Shown here: positions 17,822-24,835 of the stretch, in pieces | Layout of the letters: every line of letters starts with the position of its first letter | Position numbering within the stretch: position 1 is the stretch's first letter | Assembly: GCA_964188305.1 (NCBI GenBank) | Contig: OZ076890.1 | Length of the DNA stretch: 64,000 bases | Reading direction: 5' to 3' (one strand) | Source of the DNA: Podarcis bocagei | Taxonomy: Eukaryota | The notes under the pieces: model-generated | The model's input: the letters and a program-made list of their open reading frames with translations, nothing else | The model's database searches: none | Told to the model about the DNA's origin: nothing | Position numbers and translations under genes: made by a program

Positions 17822-19321
17822 TTATTCTGAGCTCAATAATATGGTTAATTAGAAGAATGCCTAACAATCTGTCCTCCCTGTCCTAAGACGAACCAACATT
17901 AATTCATCCTCTGCCACCTCCCAGCAGAGGAAGAGCTCCAAGCTAGCACACTTTTAAGGTCATTCTTAAACCTTAGGCGTCACACATTAATTACATGAAG
18001 AACAGAGGGACTGTGCAGCTGTGCTTTTGGCTATACCCCTGTGGCCTATGGTTTCTCTACCCTTGCTCCCCAACCTATGTGTTAGGTTGCCCAATTGTAG
18101 TGATACTTTTATGTGGAATCTTTCTGCTAAGAGGAAATACAAGAAGGCTTCCTTGACTCAGACACCCATGTTAATTCATGATTGACAGGGTTAGGGTGAG
18201 ACCAAAAAAGGTCACCTGACTACTCACTTTTCCTATTTGCATGAGTAATGTGTGGCAAGACTTTCAATGGTCATATTATCTATCCATACACATCACACTT
18301 CAGAAAGTCTCTCATGTGCATCTCTCCTCTAGCTATTTCCCCTCCCCTAAGCAAATGCTCCTACAAAGTTTGTGATTCTCTCAAACCAGCCATCAATTCT
18401 GCTGAAGGACTAGGTATCATTATGATTGTGCCACATGCAACTGATTGCTAGCAGGATTGTTGCAAGTTTTCAGGGCGAGTTCTAGGAAGCCCTGGGCACA
18501 ATGGCATCCAGTGAGCCCCTTCCTATGTTACCGGGCCCTGGTGGGTTTACCTGGTATTGGTGATCTGAACAGCACCTAGCTGTTGGAGGGAAGGAGAAGC
18601 AAATAATTATTTGAACTTCTCACAATTTCCCAAAGTGATGCCATGTTGGTTACATGGTGGAAAATTAAAATGGAAAGTAAGTCCATCTGTCAGGTTTTAC
18701 ATAGAGTGCCAGACCAGATGATGATGATGATGATTTATTTAGAGGGGGCAGAGATCAGCAGTGGGCTCTGTTAAGAGCTGTTCAAGGGTGGAATGGCTGG
18801 GTGCTAGTCACTTCGTTTGGTAAGAGCTGTTGCACGGGTGATCAAATGTTTTCAGTAAAATGTCTTCTAAAGTCCACTTAGAAGCCATAGGTCAATAATG
18901 AAAAGCTATGTAGTGTACACATCTTTTGTAGGATGTGACTTCACAAAATTGTGGGATCTGCTTCATTTCATTTCTATGGCAACAGGCATTTCCTCAATTT
19001 CTTCCATTTCTGCTTAACCAAAATCTAAGTAAGGGTGCAGTCTGATGAAAAGGAACAGAATTTAAGAGAGGCACACCTCACCAGAAGAAGACTTCTGCTG
19101 GAACCCAGCCCTCCACTGTTTGCTAGCAATAAGAAAACTCATCCTGTGGGTGGTTTGAGGTCACTAGGCCTATTTACCTTCATTGAAAAGTGGAATTGTT
19201 GACATAGTCTTTTTCTGCCAGGGATAATTAACTTCCCATAACCCCAACCATAAAATTATGCTGAAAATTTTCACCAGGAGACATGTGGGGTTGTAGTGCA
19301 TACACATCTCTTGCTACTAAC

Positions 19322-19793
19322 TGTTAGTATCTCAGCTCACAGGCAGAGGTACCTGGCCTCCCCCAAGGCAATTAAGCTGGATACTTGATGACCTCTCCGC
19401 TGCGTCTCCCGGCAGGCTAGGTCATAACTCCGGCGATTCTCCTCATCAATCAGACGTGAAGAACACACCCTCCGCTACTCTGCTTCTCTCCCCCTCCCTG
19501 CATTCTCCCAGGGAGGAGAAATGAGACAGACAGGAGTCCTTTCTACATGTTTATTCCTGTCACTCAACAGTACATAGAATTGCATCTGTTCCCTTCAGAC
19601 TCCATCAGAAGAGACTCACACTCCTCCCCTGTACTTCCAGCACAGGTCACATGACACTCTGAGCTAACATCTGGTGCTCAGTACAGAGAATAGGCTCCAC
19701 CTTTTCCCCAGCAGTACAGCAGCAAACCACAACATCCTGTTTTGCATTCCAGCAATCTGGAGCTGGCTTTTGCATTGGTGCTTTTTCCCAACA
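19322..19793 (-). repeat. 3' LTR of the copia element
   Basis: Direct repeat of 22903-23374, with 5 transitions and no indels by manual alignment. Minus-strand AATAAA at 19550-19555; E-box/M-box GTCATGTGAC at 19646-19655. Confidence 0.96.
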
Positions 19794-22316
19794 TCCTCCC
19801 CCAAAAGCATCAATTGGCAAAACATGATCCAGAGAAGAGAACAAACAGTTGTTATACATATAACAGTCCCCTGTTGTTTCAGTTCCACCCTTGGAACTCC
19901 CCACCACTAGTTTCACCAATGTACCTCTCTGGTTGTCTGGCTTCCAAGGAATGAGTGCTTCTGCATTACCTTGGTTAGCTACTCTCTGTTGTGTCTTTGT
20001 CTCTGACTTAGACACTGCTTTAACCTGCTTTGAGTTGTTAACAATAGCAACACATGCAACAGCTAAGTTAGCAAACTCTTTTGAGTACCTCTTTGGTGGT
20101 ACACCCTTTGTAACTCTCTCAGACCTGCGTATGAGGTTCTGATCCTCTGTGCTCACTGGTTCAACCTTTGGACTCTGTTGAGAACCAGTAGCAATGGCTA
20201 ACAGTGGTTCTTCCTTCATCTGTGAAGGTCTATCCATTGTGTGAGATTTTCTCTCAATGACTGTTACAACTGAACTCTCTGAGCTATCAGTGTCATCATC
20301 ATCAGTACCACTGTAATCTGTGACATCAGAAAAATCATCATCATCATCTGAATTGCCACCTGTGGGAAATGTGTGTTCTCCTACCCGCTCTTGTTCGGGA
20401 GCACTCTCTAGAAACTTTGTGAGAATCACCTGACCAGATTCAGACAAAATTACTCTGTAGAGACCCTTTTCATAACCCACAAAAATGCCTCTGGCATTCT
20501 TTACTCCACCTGGAGCTTCTGTTCTCACATGAGACCCGAAAACCTTAAAGTAGGCTACAGAAGGTTTTCTATTGAACAGCTTCTCAAAAGGAGAACATCC
20601 CAACTCTGTTGAGACTTTTCTCAACCACACATGAAGATAGGACGCTAGCGATTCGGCCCAATATTCATGTGGCAAATGTGAACTCAGCAATTGCGCATGC
20701 ATCCCCTTTTGCAATTCTTTGTTCACTCTCACACAGACCCCCCTGTTCCACGCTTCGGTCGAAACAGCAATTTTGTGATCTATCCCTTTTCCATCCAGGA
20801 ACTTCTGAAACTTCTGTAACAGAAAAATTTGCTTCTCATCTGTGAAAAGACAATCAATGTTAGCATCATGCATACTCTTAACCTTGTCACAAAACTCCTG
20901 AAACTTTTCTAAAGTTTCTTGCGGTTTCTCCATCAAATAAACCCAAGAATAATTAGTGAAACAATCCACACACAAAAGGTAATATTTTGCACTGCCCCTA
21001 GATGGTTCTAGAGCACCAATCACATCAGCATACACCCGCTGAAATGCTTTGTCGACTTTCGGCACCTTCCGGGCGCTCGTTTTGGTCACACCTGCAAGAG
21101 AGATTACGTTAGAATCAGAAGAATTGCATTTCATGTAATCACTTTGATCAAAAGTCAACAAATACAGTCCATCTTTCTCTTTGGCAGTAAGAAACAGTTC
21201 TCCATCTTTGTAGATCTTGCAGCTTTTAGCATCATAGGACAGTTTCAGTCCTTTCTTTGCAATCTGCGACACGCTCAGCAGATTAAATCTCAGTTCCGGA
21301 ACCAGGTAAACATCGCTTATAGTCAAGTTCAGACTCTCAAGATTCACAGTCCCAATTCCGGTTGCTTCCAGCTCTTGACCATTGGCCTGTTTCACAGTGA
21401 AGCTTTGCTTCTTCAACGTCGAAAACAGTCCTCTGTGCGGGCATAAATGTTTTGTGCATCCCGTGTCGATTATGAAGGCGTTCCCAACATCTGGCGTGGT
21501 TCCTTTCGCCATCATAGCCTTTGCAGGTTTCACCTGGTACTTGGTACGGCTTTTGCCTGACGCCTCAGGCTTCGTAGAGCTGCTCTTCGCTCCTCTTGAC
21601 TGGCGCGGCTTCTTACAGTTTCGCTGTAGATGCCCAATCTGTCCACAATTATAGCATTGGACAGCACTCAATGCTGTAGCATGCTCTGCAGTAGCATCAG
21701 CAGTGGGAAGATTTGAACTCTGTTCTACCCTCCCCCTGCCCTTCACTTCCAGTGCAGCAAGTCTGTCGTGTTCGTTCAGGACGACGGCACACACTCTTTC
21801 CGCGGTTAGGTCCTGAGCCGGTAGGGAACCAAGCTGACTGGCAACAACCTTGTAGGTGCGATTAAGGCTGTTTATCATCATGAAGCAAAACACTTCCTCC
21901 TGAAGACGGAAATTGCGCTCCACCATCTGTTGACGCAGAAACTTCATCTCTGTCAGGTGCGCTTGGACATCACCATCAGGCGCTAGTCTCAGATTGGTCA
22001 ACTTCTCAAAATACAGCAACGCTGAAGAACCAGCATCTCTCTGATGCGTTGTACGCAGCGTATCCCAAACCTCTTTCGCGTTTTCTAAATACTGGATATG
22101 CACCAATTGCGCGTCTGAGATACACAGTATTATAGCAGTCCTGGCCCTCACGTTCTGTGATTCCCAACCTCTGGTTGGTGCTGCAGGGATGGGGTTTTCA
22201 ATTACATCAAACAGCCTCTGATTCTGCAGCAGGGCCTTCATCTTTACAGACCAAGATGAATAATTGTCATTATTTAGGGGAGGTGGGCAAGGCAGAGCTC
22301 CCTTCTTGGCATCCAT
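19647..22316 (-). CDS. Copia Gag-protease-(degenerate integrase) polyprotein, 889 aa
   Basis: First ATG at 22316 in strong Kozak context (AAGATGG); the ORF track start at 22490 is a TTG. Copia gag N-terminus LNNDNYSSWSVKMKALL; zinc knuckle CYNCGQIGHLQRNC (21615-21656); aspartic protease FIIDTGCTKH (Asp 21465-21467) with NLLSVSQI; integrase core RVYADVIG / YYLLCVDCFTNYSWVYLM / FTDEK / WAES / FKVFGS..GIFVGY; RRSER motif. No YVDD-type RT motif. Confidence 0.93.
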   Translation of the reverse strand: MDAKKGALPCPPPLNNDNYSSWSVKMKALLQNQRLFDVIENPIPAAPTRGWESQNVRARTAIILCISDAQLVHIQYLENAKEVWDTLRTTHQRDAGSSALLYFEKLTNLRLAPDGDVQAHLTEMKFLRQQMVERNFRLQEEVFCFMMINSLNRTYKVVASQLGSLPAQDLTAERVCAVVLNEHDRLAALEVKGRGRVEQSSNLPTADATAEHATALSAVQCYNCGQIGHLQRNCKKPRQSRGAKSSSTKPEASGKSRTKYQVKPAKAMMAKGTTPDVGNAFIIDTGCTKHLCPHRGLFSTLKKQSFTVKQANGQELEATGIGTVNLESLNLTISDVYLVPELRFNLLSVSQIAKKGLKLSYDAKSCKIYKDGELFLTAKEKDGLYLLTFDQSDYMKCNSSDSNVISLAGVTKTSARKVPKVDKAFQRVYADVIGALEPSRGSAKYYLLCVDCFTNYSWVYLMEKPQETLEKFQEFCDKVKSMHDANIDCLFTDEKQIFLLQKFQKFLDGKGIDHKIAVSTEAWNRGVCVRVNKELQKGMHAQLLSSHLPHEYWAESLASYLHVWLRKVSTELGCSPFEKLFNRKPSVAYFKVFGSHVRTEAPGGVKNARGIFVGYEKGLYRVILSESGQVILTKFLESAPEQERVGEHTFPTGGNSDDDDDFSDVTDYSGTDDDDTDSSESSVVTVIERKSHTMDRPSQMKEEPLLAIATGSQQSPKVEPVSTEDQNLIRRSERVTKGVPPKRYSKEFANLAVACVAIVNNSKQVKAVSKSETKTQQRVANQGNAEALIPWKPDNQRGTLVKLVVGSSKGGTETTGDCYMYNNCLFSSLDHVLPIDAFGGGCWEKAPMQKPAPDCWNAKQDVVVCCCTAGEKVEPILCTEHQMLAQSVM
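19794..19802 (-). other. Polypurine tract (PPT)
   Basis: Minus strand GGGGGAGGA directly abuts the TG of the 3' LTR. Confidence 0.9.
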
Positions 22317-22870
22317 CTTGAAGCCAAGCCTCCAGCTCACACTGTCAAGCAAGCTGTAAAATCCAACAGTCGTTTCCTGCCTTTCTCTTTGCAGGCAAAC
22401 TGCAAGTTGTTTATGCTCTTTGCACCTGGCAGCAAAACGCTGGCTGCTACAGAAAGTCCCTTTCCAAGAGCACGTAAAGCTTGTAGCCAAAACACTCTAT
22501 GGCTTAGTTTCGCTTTCCCAGCCTCACAATGCAGCTGCGTAGCCAGTAACTTTCCACTATCGTTACTTAGCAAGAGTGCATTCAGGACTTCTTATCTTAA
22601 CCACAGGAATTTGTGGAATGCAGGCTTCAGCTTCCAAGCTGCAGGCCTTTTCTCCCGGAGCTTTTGTTTTTCAAACGCAGAGCTCCCGTGAACCAGGGAA
22701 TTAATCAACCTGCGTTCACACTTTTAGCCCAAAATGCAGCAGCATACCTTGATCTCCGTTGCTTGGAAAACACCTTCCTCTGGGTCTGTTCAGCCTCTGG
22801 CTTCTGTCAGACACTTGCCTTCTCCCTTGGAGCAGAGGAGGACATTCCACCAGCCTCTCATGCAGATGTC

Positions 22871-22900
22871 CGATGAATCGCAACCATCCGAAGGCTGCCA
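22871..22900 (-). other. Primer-binding site, split and extended, complementary to initiator tRNA-Met
   Basis: Begins 2 nt after the 5' LTR: TGGCAGC-CTTC-GGATGGTTGCGATTCATCG, versus the complement of the vertebrate tRNA-iMet 3' end TGGTAGC-AGA-GGATGGTTTCGATCCATCG. Confidence 0.85.
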
Positions 22901-22902
22901 TA

Positions 22903-23374
22903 TGTTAGTATCTCAGCTCACAGGCAGAGGTACCTGGCCTCCCCCGAGGCAATTAAGCTGGATACTTGATGACCTCTCCGCTGCGTCTCCCGGCAGGCTA
23001 GGTCATAACTCCGGCGATTCTCCTCATCAATCAGACGTGAAGAACACACCCTCCGCTACTCTGCTTCCCTCTCCCTCCCTGCATTCTCCCAGGGAGGAGA
23101 AATGAGACAGACAGGAGTCCTTTCTACATGTTTATTCCTGTCACTCAACAGTACATAGAATTGCACCTGTTCCCTTCAGACTCCATCAGAAGAGACTCAC
23201 ACTCCTCCCCTGTACTTCCAGCACAGGTCACATGACACTCTGAGCTAACATCCGGTGCTCAGTACAGAGAATAGGCTCCACCTTTTCCCCAGCAGTACAG
23301 CAGCAAACCACAACATCCTGTTTTGCATTCCAGCAATCTGGAGCTGGCTTTTGCATTGGTGCTTTTTCCCAACA
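22903..23374 (-). repeat. 5' LTR of the copia element
   Basis: TGTTGGG...CTAACA on the minus strand; CCAAT, TGTGGTTT (RUNX-like), GTCATGTGAC (23227-23236) and AATAAA (23131-23136); no clear TATA box. Confidence 0.96.
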
Positions 23375-24835
23375 CTAACATCTAAGATACATCTAAGAAA
23401 TGAGACTGGTTTTCTGCACAGTGTTTGTACTGAAGAAAAAAGTAGCAAATTAGGGGCTGGAATAAAGGCAGCAGAAGAGACCTGAAGGTTTTTGTTTCTA
23501 GTTTGAAAACGGTTTTATAAACATGAGGGGTGTGGGTGTCTCAAGGCACACTGTTTTCATTGGGGAACTGGTTCATAGAACAACACAGTCTGATTTGCCA
23601 TGCTCAATGTGTACATTTATAAATAAACAAAGGGAACATAAGTCACCAATGCTGTCTGTTATCGCAAAGAAACAGATCCTGTAAAGAGGCCAACCGTAGA
23701 ACTTTCTAACACTTGGGAATAGGGAACCTCCCTGCTTTGTGTAAGACTATTGCAACCTTACTTTTCACAGCTGTTGAAAACTTGGGAGACATGGACTGCA
23801 AGCCGACTGATTGTCTTTGGTTGAAATTATACCTTTCTAGTGGAGAGTTGTACATTAGGAAGTGGACAGAGCTCACTTAGTTAATGGAGCACTGGAGTTT
23901 TCGAGTAAACGAAACTAATGAATCCCTGTAGTGCTGGCAGGGCTAGTCACTGGCCCAATAACAGGTGGCTAATTGGCCCAGCTGGGACCAAATATGGGCA
24001 ATGTTAGCTAGTTGGCAAAGGAGCTGCATAAATCTGCACTGATGGCTCTGGAGAGAGACAAAGTTCTAGGGGAGGGGGAAGTTAGCCTGAAGGGCAACCT
24101 GGGGAATTGAAGGGGATTCAATTTGCTTCTTAGAGTTAAAAGTTGTTTTTAAGATATGGTTGACTGTTCATATCTTATATGATATGAAATTAAATATTTT
24201 ACATTGTTAAACTTTGTTTTAGCAGTAAACTGAAAACTTAAGATGAAGTATCTGGATCTTCTAATGGACTTGGCTGATTATTATTTTCTAGCTTTTGTTC
24301 CTTGCTCTGGTCTAGAGGTTCTCTGTTATGAATGATGAAGGTTTTAGTCTGATAATCACCTCCTCATACAATCAGAAATTCCTGCTGCTTCTATATTTCT
24401 GCTAAATCTAATCACCTGTGAGCTAGAAAGGCTGAGGAGAGATGTTTGACAGTCCTTCCCTCCTCTCCCCTGGAAGACAAGCTTCACCAATTTGCAGCCT
24501 TTTCTTCCCACACGAGGCTTGCAACTGGGACTTGGTTTCCAGCCTTTGGGTTGCAATGTGATTGTAAAACCAAAGTTGGCCCAAATGCCTGTTCATAATT
24601 GTAAATGTCTCCTTTTAACAACAAATCCGATGTTGACATACATAAATTACAAGAGAGAGGCTCAAAGGCAATTCGAGCCTCATGCATGAGTATACAGCTC
24701 ACAGGAGAGGAAAGAGATTTTGTTTTTTAGCAGTTGTGGGGAAAGCTCACAAATGTTAGTGTAACTGTGCAAGGGAAGTGGGGTTGCCTTTAACTACACT
24801 GAAATTATTCTAATGCTTCTGCTTCCAGATGGTTC

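Follow-up and report, generated by a model that had tools for sequence, protein, structure and literature searches.

The 64,000-nucleotide stretch of Podarcis bocagei DNA analysed here (the window) carries a non-autonomous Ty1/copia element whose integrase (IN) has lost its catalytic glutamate and its zinc finger. On the evidence of codon comparisons, this dead integrase domain is very probably a selected pseudoenzyme. Judging by the sequences of its relatives, the disabled integrase is a trait of the family and not of a single decayed copy. The family appears to be a natural separation-of-function case, in which a replicating lineage dropped integration chemistry and kept the integrase body under selection, and this selection predates the divergence of the Podarcis and Zootoca forms to 46% identity.

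Structure of the element

The element spans 19322-23374 on the minus strand, as do all of the internal features given below, and its 4,053 bp encode Gag, protease and IN without a reverse transcriptase (RT). The hallmarks of Ty1/copia are all present, namely long terminal repeats (LTRs) of the TG...CA type, a primer binding site (PBS), a polypurine tract and a 5-bp target-site duplication. The paired 5' LTR (22903-23374) and 3' LTR (19322-19793) are each 472 bp long and differ by 5 mismatches (98.9% identity), and the duplication, GTTAG, is found at both flanks (23375-23379 and 19317-19321). The PBS (22883-22900) is a mismatched variant. The polypurine tract, GGGGGAGGA (19794-19802), is common to three other copia families of this genome, S, A2 and A3. 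A single open reading frame (ORF) runs from a conserved Met through Gag, protease, dead IN and tail to a stop within the 3' LTR (19647-22316), and with the stretch 5' of that Met the full open frame covers 19647-22496. Within it, the copia Gag capsid region (DUF4219 and Retrotran_gag_2; 21759-22277) was identified by Pfam, and the CCHC zinc knuckle of the nucleocapsid (21615-21656) by Pfam and motif reading. There follow the aspartic protease (21156-21476), whose DTG Asp (21465-21467) is present in 77 of 77 copies, a shortened protease-IN linker (21039-21161), the pseudo-integrase catalytic core (20547-21047), the SH3-like IN C-terminal domain (20397-20546) and the basic motif RRSERVTKGVPPKRY (20085-20129). 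Copia membership is also indicated by the Pfam copia Gag and Pol_BBD matches, by the position of the IN in a phylogenetic tree and by a 19-aa RNase H relic 3' of IN (19830-19886; 68% identity to A2), which marks the far boundary of the RT deletion.

Autonomous elements encode RT and RNase H; RVT_2 was absent from this element in the Pfam search. RT matches were obtained in 4 of 60 family loci and belong to other families that adjoin or are nested in those loci. Locus L104 was rejected as a dead-IN element with RT, its RT being part of an unrelated 1391-aa family, and L119 was rejected as an RT-bearing member, its RT sitting in an adjacent element. L248 proved to be a solo LTR of the window's family, which interrupts an A2 gag and is flanked by a 5-bp duplication. 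At L104:4956-5410, too, a solo LTR of this family lies inside other copia sequence with such a duplication.

Loss of the catalytic residues and zinc finger

The first-pass annotation had described a DD(35)E triad converted to DD(35)V, and its reading of the active site holds: Asp1 (GAT, 21024-21026), Asp2 (GAT, 20838-20840) and Val (GTG, 20730-20732) are in place, with 35 residues from Asp2 to Val. The motifs DEKQIF, AWNRG, WAES, FKVFGS, GIFVGY and RRSERVTKGVPPKRY were likewise found at the positions it had claimed. The Val stands at the catalytic Glu position, where NRGVCVRVN aligns with NGLCERVN and NGLAERAN of the closest live relatives. In 88 copies (the window plus 87 fetched top matches), this site was GTG in 34, GTA in 26, GTT in 22 and GTC in 4, with one Ile and one Glu. 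The observation that GTG is one base from GAG is correct for the codon, but because Val occurs in all four of its codons, this closeness is not evidence of a recent mutation. Val persists in subfamilies as distant as ~60% identity and recurs in database proteins of Podarcis and Zootoca, and an exact-pattern search, which is not a census, returned nine matches with Val in all nine. The lone Glu copy is nested in the youngest clade and carries the family's other losses.

The zinc finger was lost in two steps, the HH-bearing segment being deleted and the CxxC half decaying later. Five live relatives have linkers of 92-96 aa, whereas that of the window's element measures 41 aa; of the 53 linkers read across 67 loci, 51 fall within 34-42 aa and the other two contain insertions with stops. 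Nine older copies, read by eye, have CxxC in register, and the window retains one Cys (21126-21128). The claim that the HHCC finger was cleanly removed is therefore right as to the two His, which are gone with a deletion of ~53 residues, but not as to the CxxC half, which outlasted that deletion. The D,D(35)E triad and HHCC finger of an active integrase are thus replaced by Val at the Glu position in 86 of 88 copies and by linkers of which none of the 53 examined has a His pair.

Copies and distribution

A DNA search with the element gave 771 first-look candidates, 40 of which were scored, and searches with diverged relatives recovered subfamilies from 96% to ~60% identity. A second young subfamily, at 78% identity, has Val in 20 of 20 copies. 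Open frames of at least 890 aa were present in 101 of 150 scored matches, and young dispersed copies showed LTR identities of 96-100%, 13 of 19 being flanked by 5-bp duplications; the sampled copies are top search matches, in which intact copies are over-represented. Sister copies with Glu and an HHCC finger, which the first-pass annotation had named as evidence against its reading, did not turn up: the sisters have Val and no HH.

Database relatives come from Podarcis lilfordi, P. muralis and Zootoca vivipara. The Podarcis proteins P0002, P0003, P0004 and P0007 have Val at the Glu site. The Zootoca protein P0008 (XP_060129920.1) is 46% identical; it too carries Val and lacks HH, and its two Asp positions are occupied by Gly and Asn. 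The gene models P0008, P0002 and P0010 bear the names FAM168A or vomeronasal receptor; all or part of each is the polyprotein of this retroelement.

Capsid-less variants of the window's family (L137, L138, L146, L151, L158 and L155, and protein P0010) have a frame that is still open across protease and dead IN, with an IN omega of 0.31. Their common junction sequence is joined to 3' halves both old and young and recurs in a protein of P. muralis, which suggests repeated recombination. Young capsid-less copies are interspersed with full-length ones on the IN tree, so that recombination may lend them their omega signal, and we give it little weight.

Selection on the pseudo-integrase

Codon models gave omega values of 0.20 for the capsid, 0.28-0.29 for the protease, 0.30-0.32 for the IN core, 0.28-0.29 for the SH3-like domain and 0.50-0.51 for the tail. 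The unmasked core gave 0.32 and shifted frames gave 1.6. An omega of 1 was rejected for the core (2dlnL ~273; first 68 copies, null model with a fixed kappa of 2.5), pairwise omega was 0.23-0.32 in all five divergence bins, and a stop codon within the core and SH3-like domain was found in 4 of 88 copies. The neutral evolution and frequent stops by which the first-pass annotation would have its idea judged are thus not what the family displays. Live INs of sister families have omega values of 0.16-0.22; those of the dead IN are about twice as high yet far below 1, which points to a genuine, though relaxed, constraint.

Changes private to one copy were near neutral in every domain. In the core they comprised 41 synonymous and 107 non-synonymous changes (observed/expected N:S 0.92), and in the SH3-like domain the ratio was 0.83. 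Since shared changes are constrained and private ones are neutral, selection acts on replicating lineages, in cis, and not on inserted copies or for the host. Silent sites have diverged less in the SH3-like domain and at the 3' end than they have in Gag, a pattern suggestive of recombination or RNA signals, neither of which accounts for omega below 1.

The proposal that a dead domain is kept for a non-catalytic job is therefore upheld as to protein-level selection, but several of the jobs suggested are disfavoured. Interference with the helper, or a benefit to the host, is at odds with neutral private changes, and cDNA binding at the active site with the fact that the active-site residues are those lost. 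The motif RRSERVTKGVPPKRY (RRSER..PP.RY), which had been put forward as a nuclear-import signal, is a generic pre-RT motif present in every copia family examined in the genome and is therefore uninformative about this element. A heteromultimer with helper integrase is a possible job.

Retained and lost parts of the fold

The Pfam comparison recommended by the first-pass annotation recovered two of the three suggested models, both below threshold: rve scored 15.4 bits (cut-off 32.6) and SH3_retrovirus 20.6 (cut-off 27). In the window element gag_pre-integrs gave no match at E values up to 10. Live relatives scored 43.6-52.6 bits for rve and matched gag_pre-integrs weakly. Among 32 sites conserved at 85% or more in 79 live copia INs (one artefact row having been dropped), 19 were kept, mostly structural, and 13 were lost, mostly in the active site or loop. 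The catalytic Glu is among the lost sites, together with the GGE and PxxNG positions and a number of conserved basic residues. Several of the replacements are identical in the Zootoca protein.

In a comparison of 13 segments (10 family rows and 5 live rows), the catalytic loop was the segment least similar to live relatives (identity 0.17). The helix that formerly bore the catalytic Glu (20679-20738) has been rewritten, with 32% identity to live relatives and 88% within the family, and ranks first of the 13 segments in identity to the Zootoca protein (72%).

A structure model built from a 90-row mixed alignment reached a pLDDT of 96 and matched the PFV core with a Z of 21.3 and an rmsd of 1.6 over 157 residues, while a 17-row family-only alignment gave a pLDDT of 36. 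The higher value leans on live integrases, and the fold is accordingly a prediction by homology; an RNase H-like core and SH3 fold may have been retained. The complex of dead IN and A2 IN, predicted without alignments, received a score of 0.02 and a mark of 0.34, values that speak neither for nor against an association.

Related copia families and possible helpers

The dead IN pairs with the Zootoca protein (100/100) inside an S/A2 clade (100/100), on a long stem for which the tree tool gave a long-branch warning. Family S (L171-L182; 59 matches at 93% or more) is a sister non-autonomous family whose 850-aa ORF encodes Gag, protease and an IN with live HHCC and DDE; RT is absent from all 12 of the close copies examined. 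The RT-bearing relatives of family S that were found are degraded ones only (L183, L186, L226 and L227). Families A2 and A3 are autonomous and young (LTRs mostly 99-100% identical) and share the polypurine tract of the window's family; their INs are ~36% identical to its IN. The first 20 autonomous elements considered as parents were rejected at only 22-29% identity.

In 16 of the 17 A2 copies first fetched, the C-terminal half of the capsid and the knuckle are missing and the Glu and RT motif are retained; 15 of these 16 were found with a capsid-less probe, and the proportion is not a frequency. A2 with full capsid gave 38 matches at 93% or more. The capsid-less A2 copies (L211-L225 and L230) are young and abundant, with protease, IN, RT and RNase H intact and the capsid C-terminal half replaced in frame.

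The families also differ in their primers. The PBS of sister copies of the window's family is complementary to the 3' end of a tRNA-Met(CAT) gene, the window copy being mismatched, whereas that of sister families matches an internal stretch of the same tRNA, which corresponds to the half-molecule type as set out in an excerpt of PMC6317226. A primer switch thus separates the window's family from its relatives, and the candidate helpers have a different PBS type. Matched and mismatched PBSs occur together within young subfamilies, a pattern that would arise if some progeny had their PBS rewritten by the tRNA. Contig C19 (96 Mb) holds a large share of the copia matches, including ~90 near-identical degraded A2 copies, and is possibly a repeat-rich sex chromosome or an amplified block.

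RNA-Seq evidence

No RNA run on record covers the window, and runs X23 and X24 are, by species label, from a related lizard; ~12% of each was read, and reads were assigned at family level. The window's element drew 188 (X23) and 180 (X24) reads, mostly sense, over capsid, IN and tail, and at this low depth no splice joints were seen in them. A2 drew 668 and 370 reads, none of which covered three bins across the capsid part; the capsid-less type dominates A2 RNA in both runs, and on inspection by eye the loose read ends fit capsid-less A2 as well as A3. At L229:3293-4841, four reads from one run, with two different starts, jump over 1,547 bases bounded by GT..AG, possibly a spliced A2 RNA without most of IN and part of RT.

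Proposed role of the dead integrase

An element without RT must obtain RT and live IN in trans from another element, and a dead IN selected in cis must benefit its own RNA. The account we favour, and to which we give about an even chance, is that the dead IN is a dimerising, RNA-binding module of a Gag-protease-IN polyprotein that aids particle maturation and the intake of helper Pol. A long-lived, still-spreading non-autonomous copia lineage would retain it through selection during its own replication. The domain would fold and dimerise through its core, bind RNA through the SH3-like domain and tail, and contact a helper Pol, for which A2 and A3 are candidates, with the outcome that the element's own particles assemble, mature and take in that Pol. 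Direct stimulation of RT by the dead IN is unlikely, as reverse transcription in Ty1 and Ty3 was not restored when IN was provided separately from RT, according to an excerpt of PMC5371799. Against an assembly role, the doubling of omega relative to live IN could stem from simple fold maintenance.

Fold maintenance is the essence of an unlikely but serious rival, passenger constraint, in which a jobless domain fused to Gag and protease must stay soluble and destabilising changes are purged. The mostly structural nature of the retained residues, the doubled omega, and a frame that stays open into the LTR despite a poorly constrained tail (omega 0.5) all fit it. However, this lineage was able to delete, since RT and the HH segment are gone, yet the IN has lasted to dS above 1 and into Zootoca; moreover, the segment best conserved relative to Zootoca is the rewritten Glu helix.

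That helix figures in a more specific and rather doubtful scheme of divided labour between two families, in which the window's family would provide capsids, capsid-less A2 would provide RT and live IN, and the dead IN would act through its rewritten helix as a hook pulling capsid-less Pol into the particle. Hints in this direction are the retention of the Glu and RT motif in capsid-less A2 and the RNA reads, which are zero over the capsid for A2 and cover it for the window's family. Complete A2 and A3 also exist, so that such a partnership would not be obligate.

It is improbable that the dead IN serves as an outer or flanking subunit of a mixed intasome, a core and C-terminal domain without N-terminal domain that fills non-catalytic places and favours integration of its own cDNA by helper IN. 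PFV outer subunits are resolved as cores only and the flanking dimers of MMTV and RSV give C-terminal domains in trans (excerpt of PMC5329712), and Ty1 IN is reported to be multimeric in vivo (PMC8487063, also in excerpt). The identity to candidate helpers is, however, only ~36%, basic residues that live INs conserve have been replaced, and the top structure matches include no copia intasome for comparison.

Residual metal-dependent activity through the two retained aspartates is very unlikely. Asp1 is present in 79 of 80 copies and Asp2 in 82 of 85, but the Asp codons barely vary at silent sites, so that their retention carries little signal; the Zootoca protein has lost both residues, and the catalytic loop is 17% identical to that of live relatives. 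A dominant-negative or host-domesticated restriction factor against autonomous copia is scarcely credible: a dead subunit could in principle poison multimers and the Zootoca protein bears a host gene name, but inserted copies decay neutrally, candidates number in the hundreds with young dispersed insertions, and the element relies on the very helper it would block. Nor does the family resemble a domesticated gene, which would be a fixed single locus without LTRs under post-insertion selection; it is multi-copy, has LTRs and accumulates private changes neutrally.

Comparison with known systems

In the literature searched, which took in few subscription papers and neither Repbase nor Dfam, where the family may be named, we found no selected dead integrase in a replicating element. 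The closest functional parallel is with class I (DDE-dead) IN mutants of HIV-1, whose dead IN still functions in particle maturation and in binding RNA, and shows complementation within mixed multimers (PMC9144474); those mutants are laboratory-made and have an intact N-terminal domain, whereas the present domain belongs to a natural lineage without one. The family points to non-integration roles of IN (assembly, protease timing, RNA capture and partner recruitment) that so far come mostly from HIV mutant studies and hardly at all from copia.

Sugar beet non-autonomous families also combine Gag and protease with an IN remnant, but the excerpted text of PMC13570524 describes them as decayed remnants and reports no selection on a dead IN. 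TR-GAG elements, non-autonomous LTR elements for which a role as trans-acting Gag donors to Gag-less elements has been proposed, resemble the window's element in their ~4-kb length, LTR-PBS-polypurine tract arrangement, single Gag ORF and lack of RT; as defined in the excerpt of PMC4350172 they contain Gag without protease and IN, whereas the present element has an intact protease motif and a dead IN, both under selection, and an animal host. The pol-less Athila families are likewise old and non-autonomous, with ORFs under purifying selection and proposed cooperation, but they are gypsy elements, and the ORFs kept are Gag and Env and not a disabled enzyme (excerpt of PMC2410132).

A genome with complementary defective copia families is a setting in which cooperation between elements can be tested. 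Capsid-less A2 is BARE-2-like, with intact Pol and defective Gag, and the window's family is its mirror image; unlike the BARE-1/BARE-2 pair as outlined in the excerpt of PMC4350172, both kinds coexist here with complete A2 and A3.
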